Below, in pieces: positions 28,092-54,768 of a stretch of 64,000 bases of DNA. A program made the position numbers and the translations under genes. Position 1 is the first letter of the stretch. Every line of letters begins with the position of its first letter. Under the pieces are notes generated by a model that saw only the letters and a program-made list of their open reading frames with translations, did no database searches and was not told where the DNA came from. Where the stretch lies: IMG/VR virus record IMGVR_UViG_3300011865_000035. One strand, given 5' to 3'. The DNA comes from a virus (lineage: Duplodnaviria; Heunggongvirae; Uroviricota; Caudoviricetes).

Positions 28092-28829
28092 ATGATTAAA
28101 GATGTGCAACTTTATAATGATGATTGTTTATGGATAATGGACTCGATTCCAGATAATAGTATTGATTTAATTTTATGTGATTTACCATATGGAACGACTC
28201 AAAATAAATGGGATATAATGCTTCCATTAGACAAATTGTGGAAGCAGTATATGAGAATATCCAAAGGAGCCATTGTTCTTCATGCTGCTCAACCATTCAC
28301 ATCATTATTGGTTTCTTCAAATTTAAAATATTTTAAATATGACTGGATTTGGGAAAAAACAAAAGCAACAGGGCATTTGAATGCAAAAAAACAACCATTA
28401 AGAAACAAAGAAGATATTTTAGTTTTTTATAAAAAACAACCAACTTATAATCCCCAAATGACACAAGGGGAACCATATAAAAATAAAGCAGGAAAAGATC
28501 ATACTAGCCAAAGTTCAATGACAGGATCATATGGAAAATACAGTAATTATAGACCAGATAATGAAGGAACACGATATCCAAAACAAATTCTAAAATTTAA
28601 TGTAGTGCAACGTGGAACTTTACATCCAACTGAAAAACCTGTAGCATTACTGGAATATTTAATAAAAACCTATACTAACCCTGGTGATTTGGTTCTGGAT
28701 AATTGTATGGGTTCTGGAAGTACTGGTGAAGCTGCATTAAGAACAGGTAGAAAATTTATAGGAATAGAAAAAGATAAGGATTTTTTTGATATTGCCAGTA
28801 ATAGAATTTTAAATTTAATAGATCATTAA
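28092..28829 (+). CDS. DNA methyltransferase, beta-class N6-adenine/N4-cytosine (PF01555-like), orphan
   Basis: Motif IV is 'SIDLILCDLPYG' (a DPPY variant). Motif I is C-terminal, 'VLDNCMGSGSTGEAALRTGRKFIGIE'. 'PTEKPVALLEYLI' is also present. The motif IV-before-I order is the beta class. No restriction endonuclease is nearby. Confidence 0.8.
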   Translation: MIKDVQLYNDDCLWIMDSIPDNSIDLILCDLPYGTTQNKWDIMLPLDKLWKQYMRISKGAIVLHAAQPFTSLLVSSNLKYFKYDWIWEKTKATGHLNAKKQPLRNKEDILVFYKKQPTYNPQMTQGEPYKNKAGKDHTSQSSMTGSYGKYSNYRPDNEGTRYPKQILKFNVVQRGTLHPTEKPVALLEYLIKTYTNPGDLVLDNCMGSGSTGEAALRTGRKFIGIEKDKDFFDIASNRILNLIDH

Positions 28830-29476
28830 TGGAAAATAAAATGAAAATAATTTTTGCGGATATTAATAAAAGTTTTATCAATGAAGTGGATGAATTTTTA
28901 CAGTCTAATTTATTAGAAGATATCGAGAATGTGTCCACTTTTTGCGGAAGTTTTGAAAAAGCTGTAAATAATGATAATAACATCAATTGCATGGTTGGTG
29001 CAGGAAATTCATTTGGTTCATTAAGTGGTGGTGTCGATTTAGCAATTAAAAACCATTTTGGTTTTCAACTTCAAGAAAGATTACAAAATAAAATTGATGA
29101 AGATTTTTGTGGAGAATTAAATGTAGGCTCTTCTCTTATAGTAGAGACATTAGATAATAAAATTCAATTATTAGGATATACTCCGACCATGAGAGTCCCA
29201 AAAAGTATAAAGAATACGGATATTCCTTACATGGCAACATGGTCTATGTTAACAACTATTAATAAATTTAATAAAAGTAACCCTAATAAAATAGATAATG
29301 TTATTTTTCCAGGTATGGGAACAGGAACGGGTGAAGTTGATTTTGAAATTGCCGCAAAACAAATGTTATATGCAATAAGTAATTTTAACAAGTTTTTAAA
29401 AGGCAAGAACAAAACAAGAGGATTAAGAAAAGGTTATGTTATTGAAGATAATTTAGGAATACTGGATTTAATCTAA
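28829..29476 (+). CDS. macro-domain (ADP-ribose binding / processing) protein
   Basis: 'NCMVGAGNSFGSLSGGVDLAIKNHFG' matches the macro motif 'NAAN..L.GGGGVDGAIHRAAG'. Its start overlaps the methyltransferase stop (TAATG), or it uses the in-frame ATG at 28841. Confidence 0.7.
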   Translation: MENKMKIIFADINKSFINEVDEFLQSNLLEDIENVSTFCGSFEKAVNNDNNINCMVGAGNSFGSLSGGVDLAIKNHFGFQLQERLQNKIDEDFCGELNVGSSLIVETLDNKIQLLGYTPTMRVPKSIKNTDIPYMATWSMLTTINKFNKSNPNKIDNVIFPGMGTGTGEVDFEIAAKQMLYAISNFNKFLKGKNKTRGLRKGYVIEDNLGILDLI

Positions 29477-29527: not shown

Positions 29528-30160
29528 TTATTTATGTTTAAAAGTAGAATGTTTTTCGTCAAAAAATTTATAAGGATCTCTTTTTTCTTCTTCTTTTTCA
29601 GCCAACTCTTGTTCTGCTTTATGTCTTGCTTCCATAAGAGATAACTTTCTTTTTATTTCTTTAACACCAGAAATATTATGTTTCTTATTAGATTTTTTAA
29701 TATCAAAATTGTGAGTTTCAATTGTAATTTGTCTGTTAATATCTTTAATTAAGTTTTCATTATCCACATAAGTGGATTTTAAACGATTAATATTTTTTTT
29801 AAATAAATTAAGAAGAAAATCTATTTCCTGAATATTTTTATTATAACCTAATGATTTATCAATTAGTTGATTTTTATGCTTCTCTAATTCATCTATATCT
29901 GCATTATATTTTGGAGATCTTTCTTTTTTGAATTGTGTAATTCTTTCTTCTATTTGTTGAATAGCTTTGATTGTTTCATTATCATGAAATTTTTCTATCA
30001 ACATTAATCCCATTTGTTCTTCATAAAGTTTTTCGTATTTTTTAATATTATCCTGAATATCTTTATTGTTTTTATAAAGAGTTAATTGGATATTTTTAAG
30101 TTTGCTTGTGTCATCCGAAAAAATATTATTAAAAATAGAAGAAAGCTTTTTAAAAAACAT
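29528..30160 (-). CDS. coiled-coil protein, possibly PspA/IM30-like
   Basis: 210 aa, predicted helical throughout, with an amphipathic N-terminus MFFKKLSSIFNNIF. Its similarity to PspA is weak. Confidence 0.4.
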   Translation of the reverse strand: MFFKKLSSIFNNIFSDDTSKLKNIQLTLYKNNKDIQDNIKKYEKLYEEQMGLMLIEKFHDNETIKAIQQIEERITQFKKERSPKYNADIDELEKHKNQLIDKSLGYNKNIQEIDFLLNLFKKNINRLKSTYVDNENLIKDINRQITIETHNFDIKKSNKKHNISGVKEIKRKLSLMEARHKAEQELAEKEEEKRDPYKFFDEKHSTFKHK

Positions 30161-30288
30161 TTTAAAACTCCTGAATTACATAAATAATGCAATTATAACT
30201 ATGAAATATAAATAAAACAAGAAAAAATTTTTGAAAAATAGCTTATCACCAGGTAATCTATTAACAAATTATATATGAGGAAAAATAA

Positions 30289-30939
30289 ATGAATCAGCTT
30301 TCAATTTTTATAGATAAATTAGTCGAATTTCCAACAGTCTTTCCTGCAGTATTAGCAATAACCGCAACAATGTTAATGTTGTTATCTATAATAATATCTA
30401 TAGACCATTTGTTTGCTGATGCATGGCATTTCGATGTAGATCATGATCATAGTATGGAAACAAGTTTTTCTAATAATTTTATTGCATTTTTAGGGCTTAA
30501 AAGACGAATACCACTTGTTCCTTTAATAGCATTAATTACATGGGGAATGACATTAACATGTCTTTTTATCACTTCATTTGTAGATTTATCGTCATCATGG
30601 TGGAGAATAATATTAGGTATATTACTTTTAGTGGTATTGTTGCCCGTATTTTCTAGAATAGCCTATTTATTAATGTTGCCATTAGCTAAATTAATTGAAA
30701 ATAATTCTGGTAAAGAATATACCCTCATTGGTAAATTTGGTTATGTTTCAAGCATAAATCCAAACGAAAGTTATGTGACTATAGAAATAAAAAATGAAGG
30801 AATTGATAGTTCTGTTATCGTATTTGTGGATATATCGGAAATAAACAAGATTGAACCAGGAGATAAAGTTTTAATTGTGAAAAAAGAATTAAATAAAGAA
30901 AATAATTCTTATTATTATCATGGTGGGAAAATAAATTAA
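30289..30939 (+). CDS. NfeD-family membrane protein (YqiJ-like)
   Basis: N-terminal TM helices with a C-terminal OB/beta-barrel, 'GKFGYVSSINPNESYVTIEIKNEGIDSSVIVFVDISEINKIEPGDKVLIVKKE'. It lies directly upstream of a flotillin gene, as in E. coli yqiJK. Confidence 0.65.
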   Translation: MNQLSIFIDKLVEFPTVFPAVLAITATMLMLLSIIISIDHLFADAWHFDVDHDHSMETSFSNNFIAFLGLKRRIPLVPLIALITWGMTLTCLFITSFVDLSSSWWRIILGILLLVVLLPVFSRIAYLLMLPLAKLIENNSGKEYTLIGKFGYVSSINPNESYVTIEIKNEGIDSSVIVFVDISEINKIEPGDKVLIVKKELNKENNSYYYHGGKIN

Positions 30940-31019
30940 ATTATTTTTGCAATGTTAAATTTTTATAGGCTATCATACTTTTGTTAAATAAACTGAAAAA
31001 TGAAATAGGGGTTTGAATT

Positions 31020-32987
31020 ATGGAGAATATGAATTGGTTGTATTTAGGAATTCCAGTGGCACTATTTATAATAGTGGCAATATTTTGTGCAACCAGATAT
31101 GTGTTAGTAAAAGAGACTTCAAGTGTATTAGTTATTAAACGTTTGGGTGGGAAAATAGTTGTAGAAAAAACAGGTGGTTTTGTTTGGCCATTTATCAACT
31201 CTTACACTGTTGTAAGTTTAACTCCAAGAGTAATCACTGTATATTCAGGTAATCCTCAAAATATGATAACAGGAACAGAAGATACTCAAAATGAATACAA
31301 TACTCATCTTCGTATTGGTGATGGTAGTTATTGCAGAAATGATATTAAAGTTGATATAGCTGTTACTTTTAAATTGAGTATTCCATTTGATTCATTAGCA
31401 GAGATCGCAGGTCAATTTGATCCTAATATATTAAATAATATAAAAGAATTAGCTAATTTCTTTGAACCAACATTTGCAGAAGCTTTAAAAAGTGCAACCC
31501 GCCAACATGATTACCTTGATTTAATAAATGATCGTACCGGTTATCGTGAATCAGTTCGTAAGGCTATTGCTAAAGAATTACATAGTTTTAACTTAGCTGA
31601 TGTGTTAATTTCTGAAATTCGTCAAACTCCGGTGGATAAATTAAATCCTAATGATATTCTTGATGCACAAGGTTTAGAGTTGATCACTAAAACAACTACT
31701 GAAAAAAATGTGAATATTAAGAAAATTAAAGAAGAAGGTGACACCCAGTTTACTGAACAAGAAGTAAAAGGAAAACAGGCTCGCTTGCAGTTGAACCTTA
31801 GCTGGAAAGAAGAAGAGTTTAAGACTAATAGTGCTATTGAAGTGACCCGTCTTGAAGAAGAAACAAAAGTTAAAAATAAAGAAGCAGAAGAAAATCTTGA
31901 AAGAGCTAAAATTAAAATTAGAACTGAGCAAGAATCTCGTATAGCAGAACAAAATTCTGAACGTGAAATCCAGACTTCTGAAATAAATAATAAGCAAATG
32001 CTTGGTATTAAAGAACAAGAAAGCTTAAAAGAAGTTAGACTTGCAGAAGTTGAAACAAATAATGAAGTTGCTAAAAAAGATATTGAAAATAGTGTTATCA
32101 TTGCTTCTAAAAATGTTGAACTTCATACTAAAGAAGCAGAAGTGGTTGGTATTAAGAAAGAAATAGAAAAAGAAGAACAAAATACCTTAGATATTAAAGC
32201 ATTTAGCACTGCAGAACGTAATAAGAAAGTTAAATTAACAGAAGCAGAAGCAGAAGCTACGGCTGTACAAATTAAAGAAGTTACTTATGCTGATACAGAA
32301 AAACAAAAAACTGTAATACGTGCTGAAACTCAAGAAATTGATGCTAATGCTAAACTTGTTGTTCTGGAAAAAGAAGTTGTAGGTCGTAAAAAATTAGCCG
32401 AAGTAAGTCAGGACGAAATTGCTGCACAAGGTATTGGTGAAGCTAAAGCGATGAATGCTAAAACAGAAGCCGCAGAAAAATCAGGTGCTGTTGAAGCGAA
32501 AAATATTGAAATTATCGGTAATGCCAAAGCTGAAGCTCAAAAAGCTAACTATGCAGCAATGGAAGTCCCTGAGTCTACAAGAAATCACGAACTTGCTCTT
32601 AAGAAAATGGAAAATGAATTGTCTGTTGAAACTAAGCAAATTGATGCTAATCGTGAAATCGGTGTTGCAGATGCCCAAGCTAGAGGTAAGGCTATGGAAA
32701 ATGCGAAGATTGATATTATAGGAGATGCTGGAACTCTTGAAGCATTAACAAGAAGTCGCACTACTGGTTTATCTCTTGATCGTAAGATTCGTGGTAGTGA
32801 TTTGTTGAGTAAAGTAGCAGAACCTTATTTAAGTGGTGAAAAAGATTTACCTGCTGATATGGCAAACATATTAAAAGAAATCACTGCTGACGGTTCCGAT
32901 ATAATGAACTTAACAATAGCACAAGCAATGACGAATCCAAAATTTAGTGGATTGATAAATAAAATGTTATTTGGTAGTAAAGAATAA
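31020..32987 (+). CDS. flotillin-like SPFH/band-7 protein (YqiK/FloT-like)
   Basis: N-terminal TM then the SPFH core 'RYVLVKETSSVLVIKRLGGKIVVEKTGGFVWPFINSYTVVSLTPRVITV', followed by a long E/A/K-rich coiled coil. 655 aa. Confidence 0.8.
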   Translation: MENMNWLYLGIPVALFIIVAIFCATRYVLVKETSSVLVIKRLGGKIVVEKTGGFVWPFINSYTVVSLTPRVITVYSGNPQNMITGTEDTQNEYNTHLRIGDGSYCRNDIKVDIAVTFKLSIPFDSLAEIAGQFDPNILNNIKELANFFEPTFAEALKSATRQHDYLDLINDRTGYRESVRKAIAKELHSFNLADVLISEIRQTPVDKLNPNDILDAQGLELITKTTTEKNVNIKKIKEEGDTQFTEQEVKGKQARLQLNLSWKEEEFKTNSAIEVTRLEEETKVKNKEAEENLERAKIKIRTEQESRIAEQNSEREIQTSEINNKQMLGIKEQESLKEVRLAEVETNNEVAKKDIENSVIIASKNVELHTKEAEVVGIKKEIEKEEQNTLDIKAFSTAERNKKVKLTEAEAEATAVQIKEVTYADTEKQKTVIRAETQEIDANAKLVVLEKEVVGRKKLAEVSQDEIAAQGIGEAKAMNAKTEAAEKSGAVEAKNIEIIGNAKAEAQKANYAAMEVPESTRNHELALKKMENELSVETKQIDANREIGVADAQARGKAMENAKIDIIGDAGTLEALTRSRTTGLSLDRKIRGSDLLSKVAEPYLSGEKDLPADMANILKEITADGSDIMNLTIAQAMTNPKFSGLINKMLFGSKE

Positions 32988-33009
32988 TATTAAATATGAA
33001 TAAATAAGT

Positions 33010-33038
33010 AAAAAGCCACTTGATAGTGGCTTTTTTTA
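33010..33038 (+). terminator. rho-independent terminator
   Basis: aaaaagccact-tgat-agtggcttttttt. Confidence 0.7.
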
Positions 33039-33117
33039 TAAATTATTTTTGTAATTTATATGATTTTTAAGGTAATATAGTTTGATATTTAAAATATGAA
33101 AAAAGGATTAAGATATA

Positions 33118-36100
33118 ATGCAAAATGAAAATTTAGCTCAACAAGAAAAAAATTCATTAGCTTTAATTCAGAAAAGAATGGAAGGTAATAATAGAACATT
33201 ACAAGAAATTTCTGCAAGTTTAAATAAAGAAAGGAATGAAGCATTTAAAAAAATAGATTTAACTCTTGTAACAACTCTTTCTTTAAAAAGTAATGTGAAT
33301 GCAATTCCTATTGATATTGTTAATATTAATGGTTATATTCTTGCTGGTTATAAAACAGAAAAAACAGTTGTTCAAAAAACCGAACTTTCTGATATATTTT
33401 CATATGCAAAAATTGAGAATGATGATATAGATAATTTTTCAGTTAAAGAACAAAATCCTTTTGATTCCATTTTATTTGAAGAAAAATTTAAAACAGAATT
33501 TGCTCATCTTTTTAGATATTATAAATCTGCTGAATTTTATCAGTTTATAAAAACGACAAGTAGCCTATTAATTGTTTTTAAGATTGGTGCAGATTTAGAA
33601 AATATCAAAGCATATCGTTGGGATATTGATCGTAATAGTAATTATAAATATGTTGGAGAAGTCCAAGGTTCAACACTTATACCAAATATACAAAAAGAAT
33701 TAGTTAAATTCGAAGAAGCAATGATTAGTTCTAATAAAAAAAATGGTATAGAAATATCTTCTGAATTATTCCTTAATAACTATAAAGGAAAAGCAACATT
33801 TACACATACTAAAAATGGTATTATTTTTGAAGAAGATTTAACACAAAAACTTCAATCAATCGAAGACAGCAAACTATTAAAAGTAAAAATGGGCAATTTA
33901 ATTCTAATAAAATTTATGCCTTATAATGAATTGCCACGCTTTTATATCTTTGATGAAGTGAGTCGCAAAATAATAAAAACTGAAAATTTTGAATATTCTT
34001 TACAGGAATTACCAGAAAATAATGGTATTATTTTTGCGAATGGTTTTTATTTAAATGATGGTCAATATAAACAGTTTAGTTTTGATCTTGATGCTAATAA
34101 ACATGAAAATTATAAATCACCAAATGGAGAAGATTATCTTTTTGTTTTTTATAGCAGAAGAAATAATAATTACATTATTTACAATTATAATCTTGTTTCA
34201 AAAGAAATGACTCCTCCTGTTATAGCCAAAGGTGTTACATTATTAGATAATGGTGGATTAATAGTACTGAAAGAGTCCGAAGAATTAAGTACAGTTCATT
34301 ATATTCAAATATGGAGAAGCCCTTATTTTTCGGATAATTACTATAACGAATTACTGAAAAATACTAAAGAAACCCGAATATCTAAAATTGGCAATAATGA
34401 AATTGTAAAAGCAATTGGTTCTATAAACTCTATTATTAATTTTATAGCTAATAAAGAGATAAGTGTGTCTGTTTATAATACGATTATAAATATGATAGAA
34501 ACAACAGTGGATACTTATCATTGGCTAAATGAATTTAATGATATTAAAGTTGTGCCTACCTTACATGAAGTTAAAGATACAGCACAGCAAGTTATTAATG
34601 AATATCAAAAAGTTGAAGAACTAAAAGCATTTGCTAAAAATAAAATAACAAAAGCTAAAGAAAATTTTGAAGAAATAAACAGAGTATCCAGGACTAAAAC
34701 AAATGAATTGAATCATATGTTAGATGTTCTGGTAAATATTAAAGCTTTCATTGGTCAAACTTTCATTTTAAAAGAAGACCGTTATATTGATGCTGCTATT
34801 ATTGATAGTCTATTAGAAACTGCTGAAAAAAGACGAATTGAAATAAATAATATTATTATAGAACTTTTAGATAAACCAGAAACATATTCTGCATTAACCA
34901 CAGCAATAAAAGAAATCGGTCAGGATATTGATACTGAAAATTCGTATAAAAATATAAAAGAATTAAATATTAAGATAAATCATATTACTAAAAATCTAAG
35001 CATTTTGAATCAAGAAATAAACTCTTTAGATTTTGAAGATAATTCTTTATTGGCTGAGATATTAGAAAAAATAGCTTCAGTGTTTGCTATTGTAAATCAG
35101 GTAAAATCTCGTGGTAAGCAAAAAGAACAGGATTTAGCTTTTGAAGAGGCAAAAATAGAATTTGCTTCTCATTCTAAATTACTTGAACAAACTTTAAAAA
35201 ATTCATTAAATAATGCTGAAACTCTTGAAAAAACTGAAGAGGAATATGCAAAAGTTTTAGCCTTATTACAAGAACAAGAAGCTAGATTTTCTGAATTTAA
35301 TACCGATGAATTTACATTAACAATTTCGAAACAAAGAGAAGATATACTGTCTGCTTTTGGTAGTCATAAGCAGAAATTAAGAGCAGAATTACAAAAGAAA
35401 ACAGAAAATTTAGTTAATGCTATTAAAGTTAGTTTACGTAGTATTCAAAACAAAGCTGGACAAGCTGAAACTGTTAATGACGTATCCAGTATATTCTTGA
35501 CAGATGGTATTGTTTTAAGAGCTAAAAAATTAATATCTCAGGTTCGTGAATTGGGAGATGTTTCCCAATCAGAAGATTTGGATGCTCAACTTCGTAAAAT
35601 AGAAAAAGATGCAATCAAGAAAGTTAGAGATGATTTAGATATTTTTGAAAATGGTGGTTCTGTTTTAAAATTAGGCTCATACCGTTTTGCTGTAAATAAA
35701 AGACCTTTTGAAGTTGTTTTAATTAAACGAGAAGGAAAAGTTTATACACATATTGAAACCACTGATTATTATAAAGAAATAGATTTATCTACAATAAACG
35801 AACATTTATATAAATACTGGAATTATGATTTTATTTCAGAAAGTAATAATTTATATCGTGCGGAGTATTTAGTTTATTCAATATTAGATGATATTAAAAA
35901 TAAAAGAAATGATTTAAATCCTGAACTTATTAATGACATTTTTAAGAAAGGCATCCGTTTCACTAAAAATTATAGTTTATTAAATTTAGTTCAGGATTAT
36001 TCAAGTAAATTATATAAAGAAGGTTATATAAAAGGTATTCATGATAATGACGCCGCTGCTATTTTAAAAGCGATTCTTGAACAACAAGAAAAAGCCCATG

Positions 36101-37992
36101 AGTTACAATATAATTCAACAGATCGTTTAACTGCATGGATTTTAAGAGCCAGAATAACATTAACTGAACAAAAACATGATGATAAGATAGAAAAAGATAT
36201 TGATAAAGGATTAAAGTTATTAGCAAAAATTAATACTCCTTTGTTGTTAAATTCAGCCATAAAGGAATTAAAAGATGAATTGCAAACGGAAAGAGATTTT
36301 AGTCTGGATTCTTTAGATTATCTTGTTAATTATACTAAAAAAGAAGATGTAAAAACTTCAATACAGGTAAAAGATTTTTATGATACAATGTTTAAAGAAT
36401 TAAATGAATTTATTCTGGATTTTAAAGAATCTTTTGAAGAAAAAGAGAATTTTGAAGATAAGATGTCAATAATAAAAGATTTTGGTTTATTTATTGAAGC
36501 GTATTGTAATCATCATAATTTAACAAAATCATTAATTAATGAAGTTGTAATTTATTTCATTCGTAAAGAAATACTGGAAACAGAAATAAACGCTGAAAAA
36601 ATAGAATATTTAATTGAAATAAATAATCTTTATGGGGAACATCCAAATATAAAAAATGCAACTCTTATTTTTACAACCGAAGATTTTAATATGAGAAATA
36701 AATATCATCGTGAACATATTATCCCGGCTTATGCTGGTGTCGATGAATTTAAAAAGAAAACTTTAGACAAAGAAAAAGAATTTATAAATATAAATAGCTT
36801 TAAATCAAAACCTTTAACTTCTTTTGTGAAAAATAAACTAATATCAGAATCTTATTTTCCTAAATTTGGAGCCAACCTTGCAAAACAAATAGGTGAAACC
36901 GGAGAAAGCAGAAAATCTGATACTATGGGTATGTTATTACTGACATCTCCTCCTGGTTATGGGAAGACTACTCTAGTAGAATATGTGGTAAATAAATTAG
37001 GTATGGTATTTGTTAAAATAAATTGTCCATCAATTGGTCATAATGTAACTTCACTTGATCCAAATGATGCCCCTGATTTAACAGCCAGAAAAGAAATTGA
37101 AAAAATAAATCTTTCGTTTGAAATGGGTAATAATGTTTGTCTATATTTAGATGATATTCAACATACAAATCCAGAATTTTTACAAAAATTTATTCCTCTT
37201 TGTGACGGAACAAGAACCGTTGAAGGAGTATGGGAAGGTAAATCCAAAACTTATAATTTAAGAAATAAGCGGTTTGCGGTTATCATGGCAGGGAACCCTT
37301 ATACGGAAAGTGGAGAAAGTTTTAAAATTCCTGATATGTTAGCAAACCGAGCAGATACTTATAATCTGGGAGATATTTCCAGTGATGACAGAACTGTGTT
37401 TGAAATGAGTTATATAGAAAATGCTATTGTTAGTAATCCTACAACAGAACCATTAACTAATCGTAGTATGAAAGATATTTATTTATTCTTAAAAATGGTA
37501 GACGGTCTGGAAGTAAACAGAGAAGATTTTGATTATGAATATAGTGGAATAGAAATTGACGAAATTATCAAAGTATTAAAAATGATGAAAAAAGTTCAAA
37601 GTGTTGTTTTAAAAGTTAATGAACAATATATTTATTCAGCTTCACAAAATAATGAATATAGAAATGAACCGCCTTTTAAATTACAAGGTTCTTATCGTAA
37701 TATGTCTAAAATAGTAGAAAAAATACTACCATTAATGACAGAAAAAGAAATTGATAATTTAATAATGGATCACTATCAAGCAGAATCTCAAACATTAACA
37801 AAAAGTAATGAAGAAAATTTACTTAAGTTTAAAGAAATATTTAATATAATGACTGAGAAAGAAAAAGAAAGATGGATCGAATTGAAAAACACATTTAAGA
37901 AATTAAATGGAAGCAATGATAAAGTTATATTGCAGGAAATAAGTGATAGCTTAAATAATATTGCAGAGACAATGAAAAATAATAATAAATAA
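33118..37992 (+). CDS. giant (1624 aa) coiled-coil protein with C-terminal MoxR/AAA_5-type AAA+ ATPase domain
   Basis: Walker A 'LLLTSPPGYGKTTLVEY', Walker B 'VCLYLDDIQHT' and sensor region 'VIMAGNPYTESGESFKIPDMLANRADTYNLGD' are all AAA_5-like. The N-terminal ~1250 aa have no recognisable domain and include long coiled coils. It has no basic C-terminal tail (ends NNNK). Confidence 0.7.
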   Translation: MQNENLAQQEKNSLALIQKRMEGNNRTLQEISASLNKERNEAFKKIDLTLVTTLSLKSNVNAIPIDIVNINGYILAGYKTEKTVVQKTELSDIFSYAKIENDDIDNFSVKEQNPFDSILFEEKFKTEFAHLFRYYKSAEFYQFIKTTSSLLIVFKIGADLENIKAYRWDIDRNSNYKYVGEVQGSTLIPNIQKELVKFEEAMISSNKKNGIEISSELFLNNYKGKATFTHTKNGIIFEEDLTQKLQSIEDSKLLKVKMGNLILIKFMPYNELPRFYIFDEVSRKIIKTENFEYSLQELPENNGIIFANGFYLNDGQYKQFSFDLDANKHENYKSPNGEDYLFVFYSRRNNNYIIYNYNLVSKEMTPPVIAKGVTLLDNGGLIVLKESEELSTVHYIQIWRSPYFSDNYYNELLKNTKETRISKIGNNEIVKAIGSINSIINFIANKEISVSVYNTIINMIETTVDTYHWLNEFNDIKVVPTLHEVKDTAQQVINEYQKVEELKAFAKNKITKAKENFEEINRVSRTKTNELNHMLDVLVNIKAFIGQTFILKEDRYIDAAIIDSLLETAEKRRIEINNIIIELLDKPETYSALTTAIKEIGQDIDTENSYKNIKELNIKINHITKNLSILNQEINSLDFEDNSLLAEILEKIASVFAIVNQVKSRGKQKEQDLAFEEAKIEFASHSKLLEQTLKNSLNNAETLEKTEEEYAKVLALLQEQEARFSEFNTDEFTLTISKQREDILSAFGSHKQKLRAELQKKTENLVNAIKVSLRSIQNKAGQAETVNDVSSIFLTDGIVLRAKKLISQVRELGDVSQSEDLDAQLRKIEKDAIKKVRDDLDIFENGGSVLKLGSYRFAVNKRPFEVVLIKREGKVYTHIETTDYYKEIDLSTINEHLYKYWNYDFISESNNLYRAEYLVYSILDDIKNKRNDLNPELINDIFKKGIRFTKNYSLLNLVQDYSSKLYKEGYIKGIHDNDAAAILKAILEQQEKAHELQYNSTDRLTAWILRARITLTEQKHDDKIEKDIDKGLKLLAKINTPLLLNSAIKELKDELQTERDFSLDSLDYLVNYTKKEDVKTSIQVKDFYDTMFKELNEFILDFKESFEEKENFEDKMSIIKDFGLFIEAYCNHHNLTKSLINEVVIYFIRKEILETEINAEKIEYLIEINNLYGEHPNIKNATLIFTTEDFNMRNKYHREHIIPAYAGVDEFKKKTLDKEKEFININSFKSKPLTSFVKNKLISESYFPKFGANLAKQIGETGESRKSDTMGMLLLTSPPGYGKTTLVEYVVNKLGMVFVKINCPSIGHNVTSLDPNDAPDLTARKEIEKINLSFEMGNNVCLYLDDIQHTNPEFLQKFIPLCDGTRTVEGVWEGKSKTYNLRNKRFAVIMAGNPYTESGESFKIPDMLANRADTYNLGDISSDDRTVFEMSYIENAIVSNPTTEPLTNRSMKDIYLFLKMVDGLEVNREDFDYEYSGIEIDEIIKVLKMMKKVQSVVLKVNEQYIYSASQNNEYRNEPPFKLQGSYRNMSKIVEKILPLMTEKEIDNLIMDHYQAESQTLTKSNEENLLKFKEIFNIMTEKEKERWIELKNTFKKLNGSNDKVILQEISDSLNNIAETMKNNNK

Positions 37993-37997
37993 TAAAA

Positions 37998-38026
37998 AAG
38001 AAGCTCACAATGGTGGGCTTCTTTAT
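37998..38026 (+). terminator. rho-independent terminator
   Basis: gaagctcac-aatg-gtgggcttc followed by tttatt. Confidence 0.55.
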
Positions 38027-38089: not shown

Positions 38090-39175
38090 ATGTCAGAAAT
38101 AGATTTGCAAAATTTATCCAAGGAAGAACTTATTCAATTAATAAAAGATAAAGAAATTGATTATTTAAATCAAAAAGAAATTGAATTTATAGATGCAGCA
38201 TTAGAAGTACCGGATATAAATCTTGAAAAACTAAAAGAAAGTATTAATGATTTTTCGTTAGATTTATCTTCTCTTGAAAATGAAGAAATAGATAATTCAA
38301 GCGAAATTAAAGATGCTGAAAGAGATATTGAAAAACAAGTAGAAGATATTTCTGAAAATTTTTCTAATGTTGTCTATGAAATAGCGAATCAATTTTATAA
38401 TTCAGTAGAAAAGATAACTGAATTTAAGAAAGAAAATTATCCCGATTTTAGACAATTTATAAGTTGGGAAAGTTTTTTCCAGGATTATTCATTATCTATG
38501 ACCAGTTATATAAGAACTTTACTTGAGTTGGTTCATGAAGATAATAAACATGATTTTTATCAACATGTAATGTATGATAGATATTTGTTAAATAAAGATG
38601 AGTTGGTTTCTTTTTTATTAGGTGATAGTGAAAATATAAAAAATTTTATTGATTTAATCATTAATGACGAAAATTTGGATTCAAAAACCAAAAATTATGG
38701 TTTACTTAAAGCATGTCAAAAACATTATGCACGTGCAGAAATGAATTTAAATGTATTGAATTTATTATTTGAAAAGACAGACATAAAAGAAGAACATATA
38801 ACCCAAGATATGATATTAAATACATTTAACACTAAATTAAATGAAATAACCAGAAACAAAACTAATAATTATCAGTTAGTAGTTGATCAAGCTTTTGAAC
38901 CATTGTTGAAAAAAGGATTATATAAAGAATTTTTCAATTCCACTAATGATAATAAAAATGAGTTTAAAGAAATTTTTAAAGAACCTAATACTCAAAAAGT
39001 TATTCATATGCAACATTATAAAAATAAAGCAGCAGCAGGAGCTTTAATTTTTAAAGATTTTATAGAAATAGCAGGGAATAATAAAGAATTACAAAGTATT
39101 TTAGAAAAAATGTTATTAATTGATGCATTAAATGAAAATTCAAAAAATGAACCAACAGCGAAAAGAAGATTATAA
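38090..39175 (+). CDS. hypothetical protein, C-terminal KRRL
   Basis: 361 aa. Confidence 0.5.
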   Translation: MSEIDLQNLSKEELIQLIKDKEIDYLNQKEIEFIDAALEVPDINLEKLKESINDFSLDLSSLENEEIDNSSEIKDAERDIEKQVEDISENFSNVVYEIANQFYNSVEKITEFKKENYPDFRQFISWESFFQDYSLSMTSYIRTLLELVHEDNKHDFYQHVMYDRYLLNKDELVSFLLGDSENIKNFIDLIINDENLDSKTKNYGLLKACQKHYARAEMNLNVLNLLFEKTDIKEEHITQDMILNTFNTKLNEITRNKTNNYQLVVDQAFEPLLKKGLYKEFFNSTNDNKNEFKEIFKEPNTQKVIHMQHYKNKAAAGALIFKDFIEIAGNNKELQSILEKMLLIDALNENSKNEPTAKRRL

Positions 39176-39186
39176 CAAGGAAAAAT

Positions 39187-40128
39187 ATGAATAAATCAGC
39201 AGAAGAATTATTTTTAACTCAAGCATTAAATGACAATAATATAAATCTCAATATAAAAAATTGGCATAAAGTATTTGAAAAAAAGAAAGTAGGTTATAAA
39301 AAGTTTTATTGTTATGGTAATAATGAAAATGGAATTAGAATTTCTTTTGAAAAAGATTATGAAGAAAAATGTTCATCGTTGAATATTGATAAAACTTTTG
39401 AAAATGTCTCAAATTTAGATGAAAAAGTTGGAACAGTAAGAGAATTGTTCGCAAGAGTGGTTTATCAATCTATTAGTAATGAAATAAATTATCAGTTAAA
39501 AACTAATAAAAATATTAAGGAAGACTTTCCTGAAATAGTAGAATCATTTAATTCGAGTTTGAATGATATATTCAAAGGAAAAATGAATGAATTATCTGTA
39601 AAAAATGTTTTAGATTTATTAAAAAATAAAGATATTTCAATAATAACTGATTTAATAATTGATGACGAAGTTTTATATAAAAATCCTGATATTACATTAT
39701 ATGGTTTCGATACATGTTTTGGAGACGCTAAATTTTTTGAACCTTGTTTGAGTGAAAATCTTGGAATCAAATATAATACAGAAAATTTTAGCATTCGTTT
39801 AATTTGTGATGAAAAAACAGGTATTCCACTTTTAGAAGTAAGTGTTGGAGGAGATTGGGAAGTTGAATTAGTTTTTATTTTTTATTTTGATAAAGAAAAA
39901 GATCAATTTGATTTTTTCTTTGATTATGGAAATAATGACATCTATGATGTTAAGAATAAAATTGCTTATGGAAATGAAGTGGAAGGATACGAAAATTATC
40001 ATGAAGAACAAAGAAATAGAATATATTCTTCTGAAAATCAGAAAGAAATAAGACAAAACATAATTAATCATTTTTTTGAGAAACTTTCAAATAAATATAA
40101 TCAAAACAAGCTAAAAATGAAAAGATAA
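39187..40128 (+). CDS. hypothetical protein
   Basis: 313 aa. A 15-nt tandem repeat spans its stop codon. Confidence 0.5.
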   Translation: MNKSAEELFLTQALNDNNINLNIKNWHKVFEKKKVGYKKFYCYGNNENGIRISFEKDYEEKCSSLNIDKTFENVSNLDEKVGTVRELFARVVYQSISNEINYQLKTNKNIKEDFPEIVESFNSSLNDIFKGKMNELSVKNVLDLLKNKDISIITDLIIDDEVLYKNPDITLYGFDTCFGDAKFFEPCLSENLGIKYNTENFSIRLICDEKTGIPLLEVSVGGDWEVELVFIFYFDKEKDQFDFFFDYGNNDIYDVKNKIAYGNEVEGYENYHEEQRNRIYSSENQKEIRQNIINHFFEKLSNKYNQNKLKMKR

Positions 40129-40195: not shown

Positions 40196-41233
40196 TTATA
40201 ATCTTCTAACAGGTTTATCTTCTATAACAGTATCTGTAATATGCTTACTAATTAAATGTTTATCATGTGAAGCTAATAATGCTTCAATATCTGTATTTGG
40301 AATCTTAAAATAAGAAAGTAATGGTAAAATATCGGTTAAATCAGAATTTGGCTGGATCGAAAAAGATGATCTTATTTTTCTATCAATAGCTAAATATTTA
40401 GGGTCAACCCAAAAGCTATTGTATATAGTTCCTTTTTCATAACGAGAATAACGGTAAGGTTGATCTTCCGATTGTTTTAAATGAAAATTAGTAAATAGTA
40501 TTGCATTACAGTTCGGAGAAAGATCACCATATCTAAGATTAATGTTAATTTGTTCAATATTTGAATCTTTATGTAATAAATCAACTAATTCTTCAATATA
40601 AAGGAAACTTTTTAATTGATTAAATTGAGTATGGAGATGTTCTATGTGCATATAGAAAGAATAACGCATTCCTTCTTTAAAAGCATTTAAAGATTTTGGT
40701 AATATTATAGACTCGCCTAAAATTGTGTTATCATAGCCAATCTTCTCCCATTCTAAAGGAGTGTTTAAATTATTAACAATGAAGTTCGGCTGTTTAAATT
40801 CATTAATAATAGAATTTATACCTGAAATTAAACCAAAAGTATGTTTTTCATAAATAGAAAATCGATCTTCTACTGATTGTATATATCTAAAATCATTTAA
40901 TATCTTTTTACATACATCTTGTTTGTTTACAAAATCAGGTAAATTTCTATTTTTTTCATATAAAGTTAATGAAAAATCACTAATAATGTGCAGTGATTGT
41001 CTTGAAATAGAAAAATCTTCGAATCCGTCTTTATTAACTGGAAAAATTTTTAATGTATTATAAAAAGACATTTTATCTTTTATAGAGTCATTATATGTAT
41101 AATCAAAAGCTAATAATTCTTTATTTAACTGATAAGCTGTTTCAATACTTAAAATTAAATCATAAACAACCATATTCTCCATGGTTTTGATTGCTCGATT
41201 AAATTTATCCAGTAATACTTTGCAGTCACTCAT
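40196..41233 (-). CDS. hypothetical protein, C-terminal VRRL
   Basis: 345 aa. Confidence 0.5.
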   Translation of the reverse strand: MSDCKVLLDKFNRAIKTMENMVVYDLILSIETAYQLNKELLAFDYTYNDSIKDKMSFYNTLKIFPVNKDGFEDFSISRQSLHIISDFSLTLYEKNRNLPDFVNKQDVCKKILNDFRYIQSVEDRFSIYEKHTFGLISGINSIINEFKQPNFIVNNLNTPLEWEKIGYDNTILGESIILPKSLNAFKEGMRYSFYMHIEHLHTQFNQLKSFLYIEELVDLLHKDSNIEQININLRYGDLSPNCNAILFTNFHLKQSEDQPYRYSRYEKGTIYNSFWVDPKYLAIDRKIRSSFSIQPNSDLTDILPLLSYFKIPNTDIEALLASHDKHLISKHITDTVIEDKPVRRL

Positions 41234-41362: not shown

Positions 41363-42913
41363 ATGTGGGAAGAAAATGATTATGATGTTATGGAAGATAT
41401 TAAATTTTATCTAAAAGATCATAATATCGATTTGGATAAAAAAGACCAGTCACCGCATTTGATGAATGCTCTATTGGATAAAGCATTATCTTATGAAAAT
41501 GTAAAAGCTCTGGAATATATTATAGATATAGGTTTTGATTTAAAAAAATCTACAATGGAGTTAACTCGTTTATTTGATTCATTAGCAGAAAAAGAATATT
41601 TTACTGCTTTTGTAGAACAATTTAAAAGATTAGGAGTTTTTGATAACCTTAAAAATGAATTACCTAAAGAATATTGTATTCTTTCTACACTTTTCGAAAG
41701 AAATGAACCTAAAAAAATAAAAATCTTATTAGAATCAGGTTATCCAAAAATATTTTCAGGATATTATAATCACATACATTCTTTAATTAATAAAAATAAA
41801 TATGAAGAAGTTAAAAATTTAATAATAGAAGAAGGTTATAGCTTTAATTTATTAACATTCGATAAAATTATTAATTATAAACAAGACGGTAATATTGTTG
41901 ATGTCGTAGATTTACTTATTGATAATGCGAAAAATAATACTCTAGATGAGATTAAAGAAATCAAATCTAAATTATTGGTTGATTTGTTTGCTCAATACCA
42001 TGTAGAGTTAGATGATTTAAAAAAATTAATAAACAAAGAGCCTTATGTTGATTTAGATATTGTACATTTAATGACAAATGTGATGATTATTTCAGGGGAT
42101 TCATTCTATAATGTTTTAGAAAAAAATGATTATGAGAAATTATTATTTTTAAATGAAACACCAATTTTTAATAAAGAAGAAAATAAGAGAAAAATAGAAT
42201 CAATAATATTTAAAAGTATAGAAAAACTTTTATTAAGAGACCAGGTGGATGAATTTAAAGAAATCCTCAATAAGACAAATCAAACACTTGATAAATTTTT
42301 AGAACACCGTCGATATATAATTCAAGAGTTATTTAAATTAAGCAGAGAAGATAGTATTCAGTTTATAAAAGATGTCGCTCCTAAATCACTGGAGAATAAT
42401 AACTTAATTTTAGCTTCTGTTGAATACTCATTAGAGACATGGGAAGAATCTCAGTTTAATAAAAGATTACTAAATTTTATAGGGAATTTTGGTCTAAATG
42501 AAGAAACAATAAATAAAAAATTTGATATCAAAATATCAAAAGAAACCCCTTATAAAGAAACAACCACATTATTTGATTTGGCTATACAATACAGAAATGA
42601 TGAACTGTTTCAAAAAGTAGCTAATTTTCCTGGGTTTGATCTAAATGTTCATATGGAAACTTTGTTTTATTCGACATTAAGAAATAATAGTGTTTATTCT
42701 GATTTATTATATATAACAAAACAACCAGGTTTTGAAATTTTTCCTAATGAAGAAATATTAGCTTTAAGAGAAAAAGCAGAAAATAAAATTGTAAAGGCAG
42801 AAGAAGTACATAATGTGTTGCTTTCATTTTTTGCTGAAAAAGAAAAAGAAATTTTATTAGAAAATTTAAAAGAAAATGGTATTATTAATAAGCCATCGAC
42901 AAGAAGATTATAA
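41363..42913 (+). CDS. hypothetical protein with degenerate ANK-like helices, C-terminal TRRL
   Basis: 516 aa. Confidence 0.5.
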   Translation: MWEENDYDVMEDIKFYLKDHNIDLDKKDQSPHLMNALLDKALSYENVKALEYIIDIGFDLKKSTMELTRLFDSLAEKEYFTAFVEQFKRLGVFDNLKNELPKEYCILSTLFERNEPKKIKILLESGYPKIFSGYYNHIHSLINKNKYEEVKNLIIEEGYSFNLLTFDKIINYKQDGNIVDVVDLLIDNAKNNTLDEIKEIKSKLLVDLFAQYHVELDDLKKLINKEPYVDLDIVHLMTNVMIISGDSFYNVLEKNDYEKLLFLNETPIFNKEENKRKIESIIFKSIEKLLLRDQVDEFKEILNKTNQTLDKFLEHRRYIIQELFKLSREDSIQFIKDVAPKSLENNNLILASVEYSLETWEESQFNKRLLNFIGNFGLNEETINKKFDIKISKETPYKETTTLFDLAIQYRNDELFQKVANFPGFDLNVHMETLFYSTLRNNSVYSDLLYITKQPGFEIFPNEEILALREKAENKIVKAEEVHNVLLSFFAEKEKEILLENLKENGIINKPSTRRL

Positions 42914-53571: not shown

Positions 53572-53584
53572 AGAGAAATAAACA

Positions 53585-54760: not shown

Positions 54761-54768
54761 AATAAATA

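Follow-up and report, generated by a model that had tools for sequence, protein, structure and literature searches.

Ravi, Anantharaman et al. (2024, mSystems; PMC11237479) defined a bacterial operon that unites genes for a CesT/Tir-like protein, PspA, a YqiJ-type protein, a Band-7/flotillin protein and an AAA+ ATPase, noted abbreviated operons without the CesT/Tir-PspA genes, and proposed for the operon a role in chaperone-like, ESCRT-analogous sub-membrane dynamics. A cluster of this kind has been approached experimentally in Pseudomonas aeruginosa, where the bacABCDEF genes are transcribed together, mutation of bacA raises the levels of all six encoded proteins jointly, and strains mutated in bacA or bacB are defective in biofilm formation, rhamnolipid production, swarming and virulence (PMC10948618). 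This 'biofilm-associated cluster' (PA3732-PA3727 or PA14_16140-16200, depending on the strain) has been studied experimentally only through bacA and bacB, and bacE is without a described function. PA3728, which adjoins bacD, carries an ATPase annotation (PMC8190622). Other Pseudomonas loci (e.g. our locus L010) exhibit a bacABCDEF-like order of genes for a DUF2170 protein, PspA, a small membrane protein, a flotillin-like protein and a large ATPase, followed by one or more further genes; from this order and the 'ATPase' annotation we infer that bacE is PA3728 and belongs to the DUF3686 family. Simpler relatives are the pairs YqiJ-YqiK of Escherichia coli and YuaF-FloT (YuaG) of Bacillus subtilis, i.e. 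the SPFH2 family, in which an NfeD-like protein with three transmembrane (TM) segments likewise precedes a flotillin of like topology; in the literature considered here these are, however, described as two-gene SPFH-NfeD operons with no ATPase mentioned, and their flotillins are shorter than those discussed below. The module bears on two questions, namely how SPFH/flotillin proteins assemble, turn over and are coupled to membrane repair, in bacteria and eukaryotes alike, and which ATPase, if any, recycles the bacterial PspA/ESCRT-III-like polymers.

The genes found between positions 30289 and 37992 of the window (the whole stretch of 64,000 nucleotides analysed here) represent the abbreviated form of this module, consisting of a YqiJ/DUF1449-type membrane protein, an SPFH/flotillin protein and a giant AAA+ ATPase of the DUF3686 family (table 1). 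In many Proteobacteria and Bacteroidota this triad forms the core of a longer operon, with genes for a CesT/Tir-like (DUF2170) protein and PspA/IM30 placed ahead of it. Compared with the operon of Ravi et al., the window copy is devoid of the DUF2170/CesT, PspA and PLD genes (Pfam searches found neither DUF2170 nor PspA_IM30 among the neighbouring ORFs), and its lineage adds a conserved terminator between the flotillin and ATPase genes. By gene order, the module also appears to correspond to bacABCDEF, with only the bacC-D-E equivalents present. Our result is mainly corrective, as the giant gene is no orphan and comparative genomics had already linked it to flotillin; what we add is a count of how often the two genes are linked, models of the domain structures, a fold-based assignment of the AAA clade, an invariant Asp-Asp Walker B motif and the internal terminator conserved in the window lineage. 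The module is widespread but mechanistically uncharacterised and barely studied. A role in membrane remodelling is the most reasonable reading of it, and the giant ATPase probably remodels the flotillin scaffold. The original prediction, made from the window alone, had delimited four ORFs at this place, all of which are recovered at the same coordinates, and had suggested a DUF58-transglutaminase operon at the very start of the window, where we indeed find a weak DUF58 ORF and an ORF with a transglutaminase core.

Table 1. Predicted genes, protein domains and RNA hairpin of the flotillin-ATPase locus in the window.
Feature	Position	Strand	Remarks
210-aa all-helical protein	29528..30160	-	ORF; divergent orientation; module membership uncertain
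YqiJ/DUF1449-type (YuaF-like, 'NfeD-like') membrane protein, 216 aa	30289..30939	+	ORF; about 3 TM segments, then C-terminal β-rich soluble domain
SPFH/flotillin-type scaffold, 655 aa	31020..32987	+	N-terminal TM segment or hairpin, Band_7, long E/A/K-rich coiled coil, conserved C-terminal segment
GC-rich hairpin with U-run (intrinsic terminator or attenuator)	33010..33035	+	between flotillin and ATPase genes
DUF3686-family giant AAA+ ATPase, 1624 aa, soluble	33118..37992	+	PGAP name 'DNA repair ATPase'
Predicted β-propeller (aa ~46-405), DUF3686 core	33253..34332	+	preceded by long N-terminal helix (aa 2-43)
Helical or coiled-coil region (aa ~406-845)	34333..35652	+	includes DUF7902 (aa 591-671, nt 34888-35130)
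Small β domain (aa ~846-900) and all-helical middle domain (aa ~901-1265)	35653..36912	+	no fold match
AAA+ α/β core (aa ~1266-1440)	36913..37437	+	Walker A, Walker B, sensor-1, candidate Arg finger
AAA+ lid and C-terminal helical extension (aa ~1441-1624)	37438..37989	+	invariant LQGSYRNM motif (R1527, candidate sensor 2)

The 1624-residue protein had been regarded as an orphan whose first ~1250 residues resemble nothing recognisable. This view has to be abandoned: residues 28-468 correspond to the Pfam family DUF3686 (E 1.5e-99) and residues 591-671 to DUF7902 (E 1.5e-10), the protein database contains at least 65 homologues that match it over the full length and share its architecture, and relatives are encoded in the genomes of at least 595 GTDB species from many phyla. 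When the N-terminal 700 residues were used as a query, 392 clusters at 50% identity were matched, and in the full-length matches the region sits at the N-terminus of proteins of ~1600-2000 residues. The AlphaFold2 model of residues 1-700 (mean pLDDT 86) displays strands from residue 49 to residue 400, followed by long helices (residues 406-699). The supposedly novel N-terminus belongs to a known family and is modelled as a β-propeller, and the part behind the propeller is modelled as helical bundles. A Foldseek search with the propeller against the PDB retrieved generic β-propellers only (IFT-A, the WD40 domain of DCAF1, TolB and prolyl oligopeptidase; E 2e-7 to 1e-4), and fold comparison gave no match for the middle domain. 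As modelled, the protein is composed of an N-terminal helix, the β-propeller, a helical bundle or coiled coil of ~440 residues, a small β domain, a helical middle domain and the C-terminal AAA+ module; the window protein has the features of the ATPase of this module, namely a large size, a predicted DUF3686 propeller at the N-terminus, regions of helix or coiled coil and just one AAA+ domain at the C-terminus.

Both the Pfam description of DUF3686 and the PGAP product name call this protein a 'DNA repair ATPase', implying an SMC/SbcC-type enzyme that merely adjoins a flotillin operon, an idea with which the long coiled coils and a DNA methylase gene 1.5 kb upstream in the window would agree. 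The P-loop is, however, of the AAA+ type rather than that of an ABC/SMC head, the Pfam matches include no DNA-binding or nuclease domain (nor any protease domain), its two constant partners throughout the phyla are membrane proteins, no repair gene recurs nearby, and the literature searched contains no mention of DUF3686. We therefore give this explanation next to no credence, and the name is unsupported and probably misleading.

The C-terminal ATPase with the motifs originally quoted is present: Walker A reads GYGKTT (K1283) and Walker B YLDD (D1345, D1346), with sensor-1 at N1393, a candidate Arg finger at R1411 and a predicted pre-sensor-1 β-hairpin at residues ~1367-1380. In an alignment of 20 diverse sequences K1283, D1345/D1346, N1393 and R1411 are invariant, as is R1527; to judge from the alignment the active site is kept rather than degenerate. 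Across phyla, identity amounts to 67% in the AAA core, compared with 20-33% for the other, non-AAA segments; the lid, helical in the model, shows 46% identity to distant homologues. Note that Walker B is invariantly Asp-Asp in place of the usual Asp-Glu, and hydrolysis may consequently be slow, or the protein may work as a switch gated by nucleotide and not unfold substrates processively. A search for a conserved aromatic motif in the pore loops found none.

The assignment to the MoxR/AAA_5 group is doubtful. The AAA_5 model does exceed its cut-off (27.9 bits, cut-off 22), but the AAA model (PF00004), also above its cut-off, scores higher (31.9 bits), the best PDB matches of the domain at the sequence level are classical AAA proteins (Rix7, NVL and p97; E ~2e-4). 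By sequence the domain fits classical AAA slightly better than AAA_5. The structure model contains no clear helix-2 insert. Within the MoxR/AAA_5 group (CbbQ, NorQ and RavA; dynein and midasin AAA modules), MoxR proteins proper are stand-alone ATPases of ~300-350 residues partnered with VWA or DUF58 proteins. The window protein, in contrast, has 1624 residues with a propeller, coiled coils and the Asp-Asp Walker B, and no VWA or DUF58 gene adjoins it, its neighbours being the YqiJ-like and flotillin genes.

The conservation of this neighbourhood is strong and supports the original idea of a functional module, which depended on it. A flotillin homologue (E 1e-24 to 1e-67) is encoded upstream and on the same strand as the giant gene, in most cases directly adjacent to it, in 75 of 80 loci, which span Gamma-, Beta- and Zetaproteobacteria, Myxococcota, Actinomycetota, Planctomycetota, Bacteroidota, Clostridia and Acidobacteriota; of the five loci outside this count, four have too little upstream DNA and one (L042) is undecided. 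The gap between the two genes has a median of 83 nt and is below 600 nt in 66 of the 71 pairs measured, eight pairs overlapping or abutting. The YqiJ-like gene lies directly 5' of the flotillin gene in 70 of the 80 loci. The triad is kept in two close relatives of the window lineage (L081 and L082) even though their flanking genes differ, and the same gene order is found in the independent PGAP annotation of plasmid pQBR103 and of a Hymenobacter plasmid.

The wider neighbourhood bears on what the ATPase acts upon. A CesT/DUF2170-PspA pair lies directly 5' of the YqiJ-like gene in 23 of the 80 loci, a DUF2170-PspA pair also precedes the module on the Hymenobacter plasmid, and in L081, the closest relative, a PspA gene is situated 6 kb from the module. 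It could be imagined that the ATPase, in the manner of Vps4, mainly takes apart ESCRT-III-type polymers of PspA/IM30, with flotillin and the YqiJ-like protein providing only a membrane platform; indeed, Ravi et al. called it unknown how PspA homologues lacking an AAA partner regulate their assembly (PMC11237479), and an SPFH protein is reported to tie PspA to the membrane in B. subtilis (PMC8581546). We consider such a division of roles unlikely.

In some Proteobacteria the ATPase gene is followed by genes for rhomboid, PLD and TelA proteins. These might hint at clients, i.e. membrane proteins that flotillin would corral and the ATPase would extract or unfold for quality control or complex assembly, the scaffold itself not being the substrate. 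Pairings of SPFH and AAA+ proteins do recur, FtsH-type proteases being interaction partners of SPFH1, SPFH3 and prohibitins (PMC2636767). HflK/C-FtsH and prohibitin-m-AAA, likewise combinations of an SPFH scaffold with an AAA+ ATPase, offer a functional analogy, and clients might dock on the propeller and on the large helical domains. FtsH, however, is a membrane-anchored, protease-bearing member of the classical AAA clade, not a giant soluble protein encoded beside hflKC. The giant ATPase has no protease domain, no TM segment was found in it that could anchor it, and its AAA clade is another one; moreover, no client gene is conserved beside the triad across phyla. A protease-free counterpart of HflK/C-FtsH devoted to clients is thus quite improbable.

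The same PLD-family genes, the plasmid-borne copies and the position of the window copy beside a DNA methylase and a macro-domain gene, amid fast-evolving ORFans, might evoke a membrane-associated anti-phage or abortive-infection system, and the Psp response was originally discovered through phage infection. Nevertheless, none of the seven proteins scanned in and around the module matched PADLOC, and the neighbours in the 80 loci are not defence genes, the recurrent partners being of the envelope-stress type (PspA and yjfKLMC-like polyamine genes). A defence function is accordingly very hard to credit, and remodelling of the flotillin scaffold remains our preferred reading.

The two membrane partners are compatible with it. 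The 655-residue protein carries a Band_7/SPFH domain at residues 33-201 (Pfam E 1.3e-9) behind a single N-terminal TM segment (residues 3-33), and its E/A/K-rich central region is conserved in the homologue alignment; no PDB match was obtained at the sequence level. From this succession of membrane anchor, Band_7 and long coiled coil, the protein is identified as an SPFH/flotillin. The flotillins linked to the ATPase have 650-720 residues and are so divergent that the Pfam Band_7 model detects them weakly or misses them. The 216-residue protein, with about three TM segments in a hydropathy scan, had been labelled NfeD within a YqiJ/YqiK-type pair, a label that the Pfam model does not support: NfeD (PF01957) matches none of 29 family members and YqiJ_N only one. 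The family profile aligns with a PGAP 'DUF1449 family protein' at 99.8% probability (hhalign, E 2e-29). Its C-terminal domain matches the soluble domain of YuaF (2k14) in register, but with an E-value of only 0.29.

The postulated terminator ahead of the giant gene is likewise borne out. The hairpin consists of AAAAAGCCACT-TGAT-AGTGGCTTTTT followed by T's, and an equivalent occurs at the same position, with compensatory base changes, in the related contigs L081 and L082. Since terminator-like sites are not more numerous in the region than in shuffled controls (3 versus 2.3), it is this conservation in three genomes that supports the element. The conserved terminator implies that flotillin and the ATPase can be expressed separately in the window lineage.

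Considering gene linkage and domain logic together, the best explanation we can offer, to which we would assign about an even chance, is that the giant protein is a hexameric, cytoplasmic, ATP-driven remodeller of the flotillin assembly, docked on the scaffold. With its N-terminal hairpin as the anchor and the YqiJ-like protein as co-organiser, flotillin would build an oligomer on the cytoplasmic side of the membrane, to which the propeller and the coiled-coil arm would recruit the ATPase; given the merely generic propeller matches and the unmatched middle domain, this recruitment step is a guess. The AAA+ module would drive oligomerisation of the ATPase, presumably into a hexamer, and ATP hydrolysis would power remodelling, disassembly or turnover of the flotillin assembly and, where PspA is present, remodelling of the PspA polymers docked on it. 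The ATPase would then be the energy-consuming partner of a membrane-stress and repair scaffold, comparable to Vps4 with ESCRT-III or to FtsH inside HflK/C; with the former (PspA/Vipp1 being the bacterial ESCRT-III) it would share the concept of an AAA+ ring recycling a membrane-bound polymeric scaffold. The terminator hairpin may keep the ATPase sub-stoichiometric to the scaffold in the window lineage. The Asp-Asp Walker B, the failure to find a pore-loop motif and the separable expression of the two genes weigh against this explanation.

A bolder version, which we put forward tentatively and regard as somewhat doubtful, holds that the giant ATPase is a dedicated ATP-driven machine that assembles or disassembles flotillin cages in bacteria and, by way of these cages, PspA/ESCRT-III-like polymers. 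If so, it would be the first known non-protease energy-consuming regulator of an SPFH scaffold, the invariant Asp-Asp Walker B would point to a slow, switch-like motor, and the strict genetic coupling would suggest a flotillin subfamily unable to cycle without its ATPase. Since hundreds of species pair a flotillin with this conserved AAA+ motor, and members of Pseudomonas, Vibrio, Myxococcus, Proteus and Xenorhabdus among them are tractable, both the flotillin and the PspA questions can be tested directly.

Upstream of the window module lie the methylase gene, the macro-domain gene and the divergent ORF for the 210-residue helical protein, which had been thought weakly PspA-like. Its all-helical nature stands, but the likeness to PspA stays weak: no Pfam family matches it, PF04012 included, the hhalign probability against PspA drops from 83% with a two-sequence alignment to 24% with six sequences, and the matches to Vipp1, although full-length and in register, have E-values of 0.2-0.3. 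The family has five matches, all within the window lineage, and the gene is not located beside the module in L081 or L082; the L081 homologue (26% identity, E 1e-17) is encoded directly upstream of a true PspA_IM30 gene. Judged from these alignments, a very divergent relative of PspA/IM30 is possible. The window lineage as a whole has a GC content of ~24% and is rich in ORFans, about half of which, in the window, end in K-x-R-L.

The four ORFs of the original prediction are all present in the window (table below), and the largest of them is not the orphan that it was taken to be. Its first ~1250 residues had been said to match nothing; Pfam recognizes there both DUF3686 (aa 28-468, E 1.5e-99) and DUF7902 (aa 591-671, E 1.5e-10), and the statement is therefore wrong. 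We found 65 homologues in the protein database, nearly all of them full-length (1600-1860 aa) and with an identical Pfam architecture, including metagenomic relatives (99%, 75%, 71% and ~52% identity) and proteins from Marinibactrum, Adhaeribacter, Oceanirhabdus, Fuerstiella, Labilibacter, Luteolibacter, Vallitalea and Haliovirga (30-38%). A scan of GTDB with one genome per species revealed at least 595 loci encoding a relative, the best of those among the 80 loci retained for comparison being 37% identical. When the N-terminal 700 aa were searched against 1.84 billion representatives, 392 clusters at 50% identity came back (145 with E ≤ 1e-30), and in the full-length matches of ~1600-2000 aa this region forms the N-terminus. 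The family also occurs on thirteen plasmid or chromid records. Judged from its sequence, the giant ATPase is thus a member of a broad and architecturally fixed family.

Table. Features of the window discussed in the text.
Feature	Position	Strand	Remarks
DUF58-like ORF overlapping the start of a 688-aa transglutaminase-core protein	131-3002		DUF58 weak (E 5e-4, below cut-off); transglutaminase core E 5e-19
Truncated class I Glu/Gln tRNA-synthetase catalytic domain, 297 aa	22566-23459		GluQRS/YadB-like, E 1.4e-52
Eight small ORFs in a row	24206-28037		140-165 aa
N6/N4 DNA methylase and macro-domain protein	28092-29476		directly upstream of the module; E 1.9e-30 and E 1.4e-12
210-aa ORF	29528-30160	-	no Pfam match
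216-aa ORF, YqiJ/YuaF-type	30289-30939	+	Pfam: DUF4131, sub-threshold only
Flotillin, 655 aa	31020-32987	+	Pfam Band_7/SPFH, E 1.3e-9
Hairpin with U-run	33010-33035		GC-rich; between flotillin and ATPase genes
Giant ATPase, 1624 aa	33118-37992	+	Pfam DUF3686, DUF7902, AAA/AAA_5
Walker B of giant ATPase	37147-37155		aa 1344-1346
Second terminator hairpin	~37997-38024		after ATPase stop codon
361-aa ORF	38090-39175	+	3' of ATPase gene, no Pfam match
313-aa ORF	39187-40128	+	3' of 361-aa ORF, no Pfam match
345-aa ORF	40196-41233	-	convergent, no Pfam match
Four paralogous ~190-aa proteins in tandem	53002-55362		mutual identity 55-81%
Examples of stretches with the C-terminal tail (see last paragraph)	3371-4531, 8853-10448, 16949-17998, 24206-28037, 38090-39175, 40196-41233(-), 41363-42913, 47301-49040, 56325-58052(-)		

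To evaluate the conservation of gene order, all ORFs of the 80 retained loci were translated and searched with the window proteins, and neighbouring ORFs were grouped by all-against-all clustering. In 75 of the 80 loci, a same-strand homologue of the flotillin (E 1e-24 to 1e-67) is encoded upstream of the giant gene. The loci are drawn from Gamma-, Beta- and Zetaproteobacteria, Myxococcota, Actinomycetota, Planctomycetota, Bacteroidota, Clostridia and Acidobacteriota. In four of the five exceptions (L025, L036, L046 and L062) the DNA available upstream is shorter than 1.5 kb, and the fifth (L042) has no complete ORF matching either gene. The two genes lie a median of 83 nt apart, 66 of 71 pairs being separated by no more than 600 nt, with overlap or abutment in eight. 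A family of ~220-aa proteins is encoded immediately 5' of the flotillin gene in 70 of the 80 loci, and two further families, identified by Pfam as DUF2170 (CesT/Tir-like, YjfI) and PspA_IM30, occur farther upstream in 23; no other neighbour conserved across phyla emerged from the clustering. In some Proteobacteria the ATPase gene is followed by rhomboid, PLD and TelA genes. In the two closest relatives (ATPase 75% and 53% identical) the triad of YqiJ-like, flotillin and ATPase genes is kept while every flanking gene is different. Independent PGAP annotations agree with this gene order. That of a Hymenobacter plasmid reads Tir chaperone, PspA/IM30, DUF1449 family protein, a hypothetical protein of 722 aa and DNA repair ATPase; that of pQBR103 reads DUF2491, DUF350, DUF1190, glutathionylspermidine-synthase-like, a hypothetical protein of 217 aa, SPFH and DNA repair ATPase. 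The linkage counts, the kept triad and these annotated orders together make it clear that the neighbourhood is conserved among relatives, so that the check proposed with the original prediction does not refute it. The flotillin-ATPase combination ranks with the most strictly conserved gene pairs that could be wished for, whereas coupling to PspA is facultative.

The three ORFs on the 3' side of the ATPase gene (361, 313 and 345 aa) were considered as further parts of the module and rejected, as they have no Pfam match and are not module neighbours in L081 or L082, the two related contigs with the closest ATPase relatives. Likewise, the methylase and macro-domain genes are not conserved module neighbours in the other genomes compared. 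As a side observation, the triad on pQBR103, a P. fluorescens megaplasmid, directly follows yjfKLMC-like genes (L083, 65-11199), an arrangement that unites two PspA-associated operon types kept separate by Ravi et al.; the stretch viewed contains no PspA gene.

The module as such has been described before. Ravi, Anantharaman et al. (mSystems 2024, PMC11237479) reported a four-element operon including a CesT/Tir-PspA pair, a 3-TM YqiJ/YuaF protein and sometimes PLD, and noted that abbreviated operons without PspA "are more widely distributed"; the operon in the window is such an abbreviated form. In Pseudomonas aeruginosa, the biofilm-associated cluster PA3732-PA3729 has been extended to six co-transcribed and apparently sigma-54-dependent genes, bacABCDEF; bacA and bacB have biofilm, rhamnolipid, swarming and virulence phenotypes, and all six Bac proteins accumulate in a bacA mutant (PMC10948618). 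Since genes for DUF2170, PspA, YqiJ-like, flotillin, giant ATPase, (rhomboid) and PLD follow one another in other Pseudomonas loci, and since PA3728 is listed as an "ATPase", bacE very probably encodes a member of the same ATPase family, to judge from gene order and annotation. In the literature searched, PA3728 turns up solely in lists of mutated genes, DUF3686 is not mentioned, and no functional study of the giant ATPase was found. The window therefore holds a member, from an AT-rich lineage, of a known but mechanistically uncharacterized module, to which the present analysis adds a quantified linkage, domain models, a tentative assignment of the AAA clade, the Asp-Asp Walker B motif and a lineage-specific terminator. 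The original prediction had picked out something real and mis-described it, and its interpretation was right in part. The ATPase family as a whole makes a good experimental target.

As modelled by AlphaFold2 from a 15-sequence alignment (mean pLDDT 86), aa 1-700 start with a long helix (aa 2-43), continue as a beta-rich domain (aa 49-400) and end in long helices reaching aa 699. Foldseek matched this model in the PDB only to generic beta-propellers (E 2e-7 to 1e-4, low TM-scores), among them IFT-A, the WD40 domain of DCAF1, a trilobed protease, TolB and prolyl oligopeptidase; the predicted fold agrees with the published "beta-propeller" description, and the matches offer no hint of function. 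In the model of aa 840-1624 (mean pLDDT 79), a small beta domain and a middle domain made up entirely of helices are followed by a canonical AAA+ alpha/beta core, its lid and a C-terminal extension that is again helical; a hairpin occupies the pre-sensor-1 position between alpha3 and beta4, and no helix-2 hairpin is evident. In Pfam, aa 1273-1398 score 31.9 bits with AAA and 27.9 bits with AAA_5, and the top PDB matches by sequence are classical AAA proteins, aligned around the P-loop only. The modelled structure and the narrow extent of these sequence matches therefore leave "AAA_5/MoxR-like", the term originally proposed, as probably the best structural description. The protein does not belong to the MoxR family itself, as it is of the wrong size, has no VWA or DUF58 partner and carries an ambiguous clade signature.

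Across a 20-sequence, cross-phylum alignment, the Walker A motif GYGKTT (K1283), MAGNPYTE (N1393, sensor 1), R1411 and LQGSYRNM (R1527) are invariant, and identity to distant homologues reaches 67% in the AAA core and 46% in the lid, compared with 20-33% in the other segments. The domain is thus free of inactivating substitutions, in keeping with the earlier expectation. The sole oddity of the active site is the Walker B motif YLDD (D1345, D1346), likewise invariant in all 20 aligned members, which has Asp-Asp instead of the usual AAA+ Asp-Glu and may make hydrolysis slow or switch-like. As for the database names of the family ("DNA repair ATPase" as the NCBI product name, "ATPase involved in DNA repair" in the Pfam text), nothing visible speaks for them: no domain linked to DNA turned up in the protein, it is not of the SMC/ABC type, and repair genes do not recur among its neighbours. 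A role in DNA repair was considered and rejected as hardly credible.

No TM segment was found in the giant ATPase. The flotillin has one N-terminal hydrophobic segment, followed by Band_7, a long stretch rich in E/A/K and, at the C-terminus, a conserved segment. The protein is divergent: several orthologues fall below the Pfam threshold, and its sequence has no match in the PDB. About three TM segments are seen in the 216-aa protein, which ends in a beta-rich domain. It had been called a canonical NfeD, a label that proves overstated, Pfam NfeD being matched by none of the 29 family members and YqiJ_N by one. The family profile aligns in register with the YuaF soluble domain, at E 0.29 only, and over its full length with the Hymenobacter "DUF1449 family protein" (99.8%, E 2e-29). 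Together with the Pfam counts, these matches make "YqiJ/YuaF-type, NfeD-like" the accurate label. In genetic terms, a soluble, active-looking AAA+ protein is strictly coupled to two others, the YqiJ-like protein and a membrane-anchored flotillin.

The PspA-like gene suspected upstream encodes an all-helical protein of 210 aa with no TM segment. It has only five relatives, all in the window's lineage, so that its alignment could not be deepened. Against a 19-sequence PspA alignment, hhalign gave a sub-threshold probability that fell from 83% with two sequences to 24% with six, and PDB profile searches retrieved Vipp1 full-length and in register, at E 0.2-0.3 only. In L081, the gene for its homologue (26% full-length identity, E 1e-17) is found immediately upstream of a genuine PspA_IM30 gene. 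The protein is possibly a divergent PspA paralogue, a reading to which we give somewhat less than even credence. Its gene is not beside the module in L081 or L082 and is not counted as part of it.

How might these components act together? We propose that the ATPase would dock on the cytoplasmic flotillin assembly via its propeller and coiled-coil arm, oligomerize via its AAA+ module, and remodel or recycle the scaffold plus any bound PspA, a model that we hold with roughly balanced confidence. A Vps4-like PspA disassemblase appears rather unlikely, and we also consider it improbable that the ATPase extracts clients in the manner of HflK/C-FtsH. An anti-phage function was considered and rejected as very improbable. 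PADLOC scans of seven proteins in and around the module gave no meaningful match, and neither did NCBIfam scans of the seven.

The terminator proposed between the flotillin and ATPase genes finds support. Terminator-like sites in general are no more numerous in the region than in shuffled controls, and the support therefore comes from conservation: equivalent hairpins with compensatory changes occupy the same place in L081 (~9886-9911) and L082 (~9917-9942), the flotillins of the three genomes being 45-65% identical. The AT-rich lineage of the window probably either keeps the ATPase at a level below that of the scaffold or expresses it from its own promoter. The two genes abut or overlap in many other genomes, and the corresponding P. 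aeruginosa genes are co-transcribed (PMC10948618). Promoter-like sites number 68 in the region versus 74 in shuffled controls, so no promoter is claimed.

The window has a G+C content of ~24% and a steady, strongly positive GC skew, with nearly all genes on the plus strand. Rfam and tRNA scans of its whole length found nothing, and 18 of the 20 large ORFs scanned outside the module lack a Pfam match, an extreme ORFan richness. The GluQRS-like gene is among its few housekeeping-type genes; close relatives of its product, like those of the ATPase, are metagenomic only. Several genes in L081 have weak Pfam ankyrin matches. Taken together, these features suggest an uncultured, possibly host-associated bacterium. 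The ORFs at the window start are consistent with the predicted tail of a MoxR-DUF58-TGc operon, whose MoxR gene would fall outside the window.

A further observation concerns protein C-termini. Among the 62 non-overlapping ORFs of at least 100 aa in the window, 29 end in [K/N/R/Q/S/T]-R-[L/I/M/F]-COOH, typically KKRL, KRRL or KNRL, as against ~0.5 expected from the internal dipeptide frequency. The tail also occurs in 8 of 16 ORFs in L082 and in 4 of 21 in L081, three of the latter overlapping genes with weak or faint Pfam ankyrin matches. Almost all carriers are ORFans without a Pfam match, and the tail is absent from the conserved window proteins, triad included. It has the look of a sorting or secretion signal that effector-like proteins carry at the C-terminus across the lineage; one search of the literature returned nothing relevant to it, and it may be more novel than the flotillin-ATPase finding. 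Most of the eight small ORFs in a row combine the basic K-x-R-L tail with apparent central hydrophobic stretches, and similarity among them is detectable in a few pairs only (23-32% identity). Farther along the window, the four ~190-aa paralogues form a tandem array.
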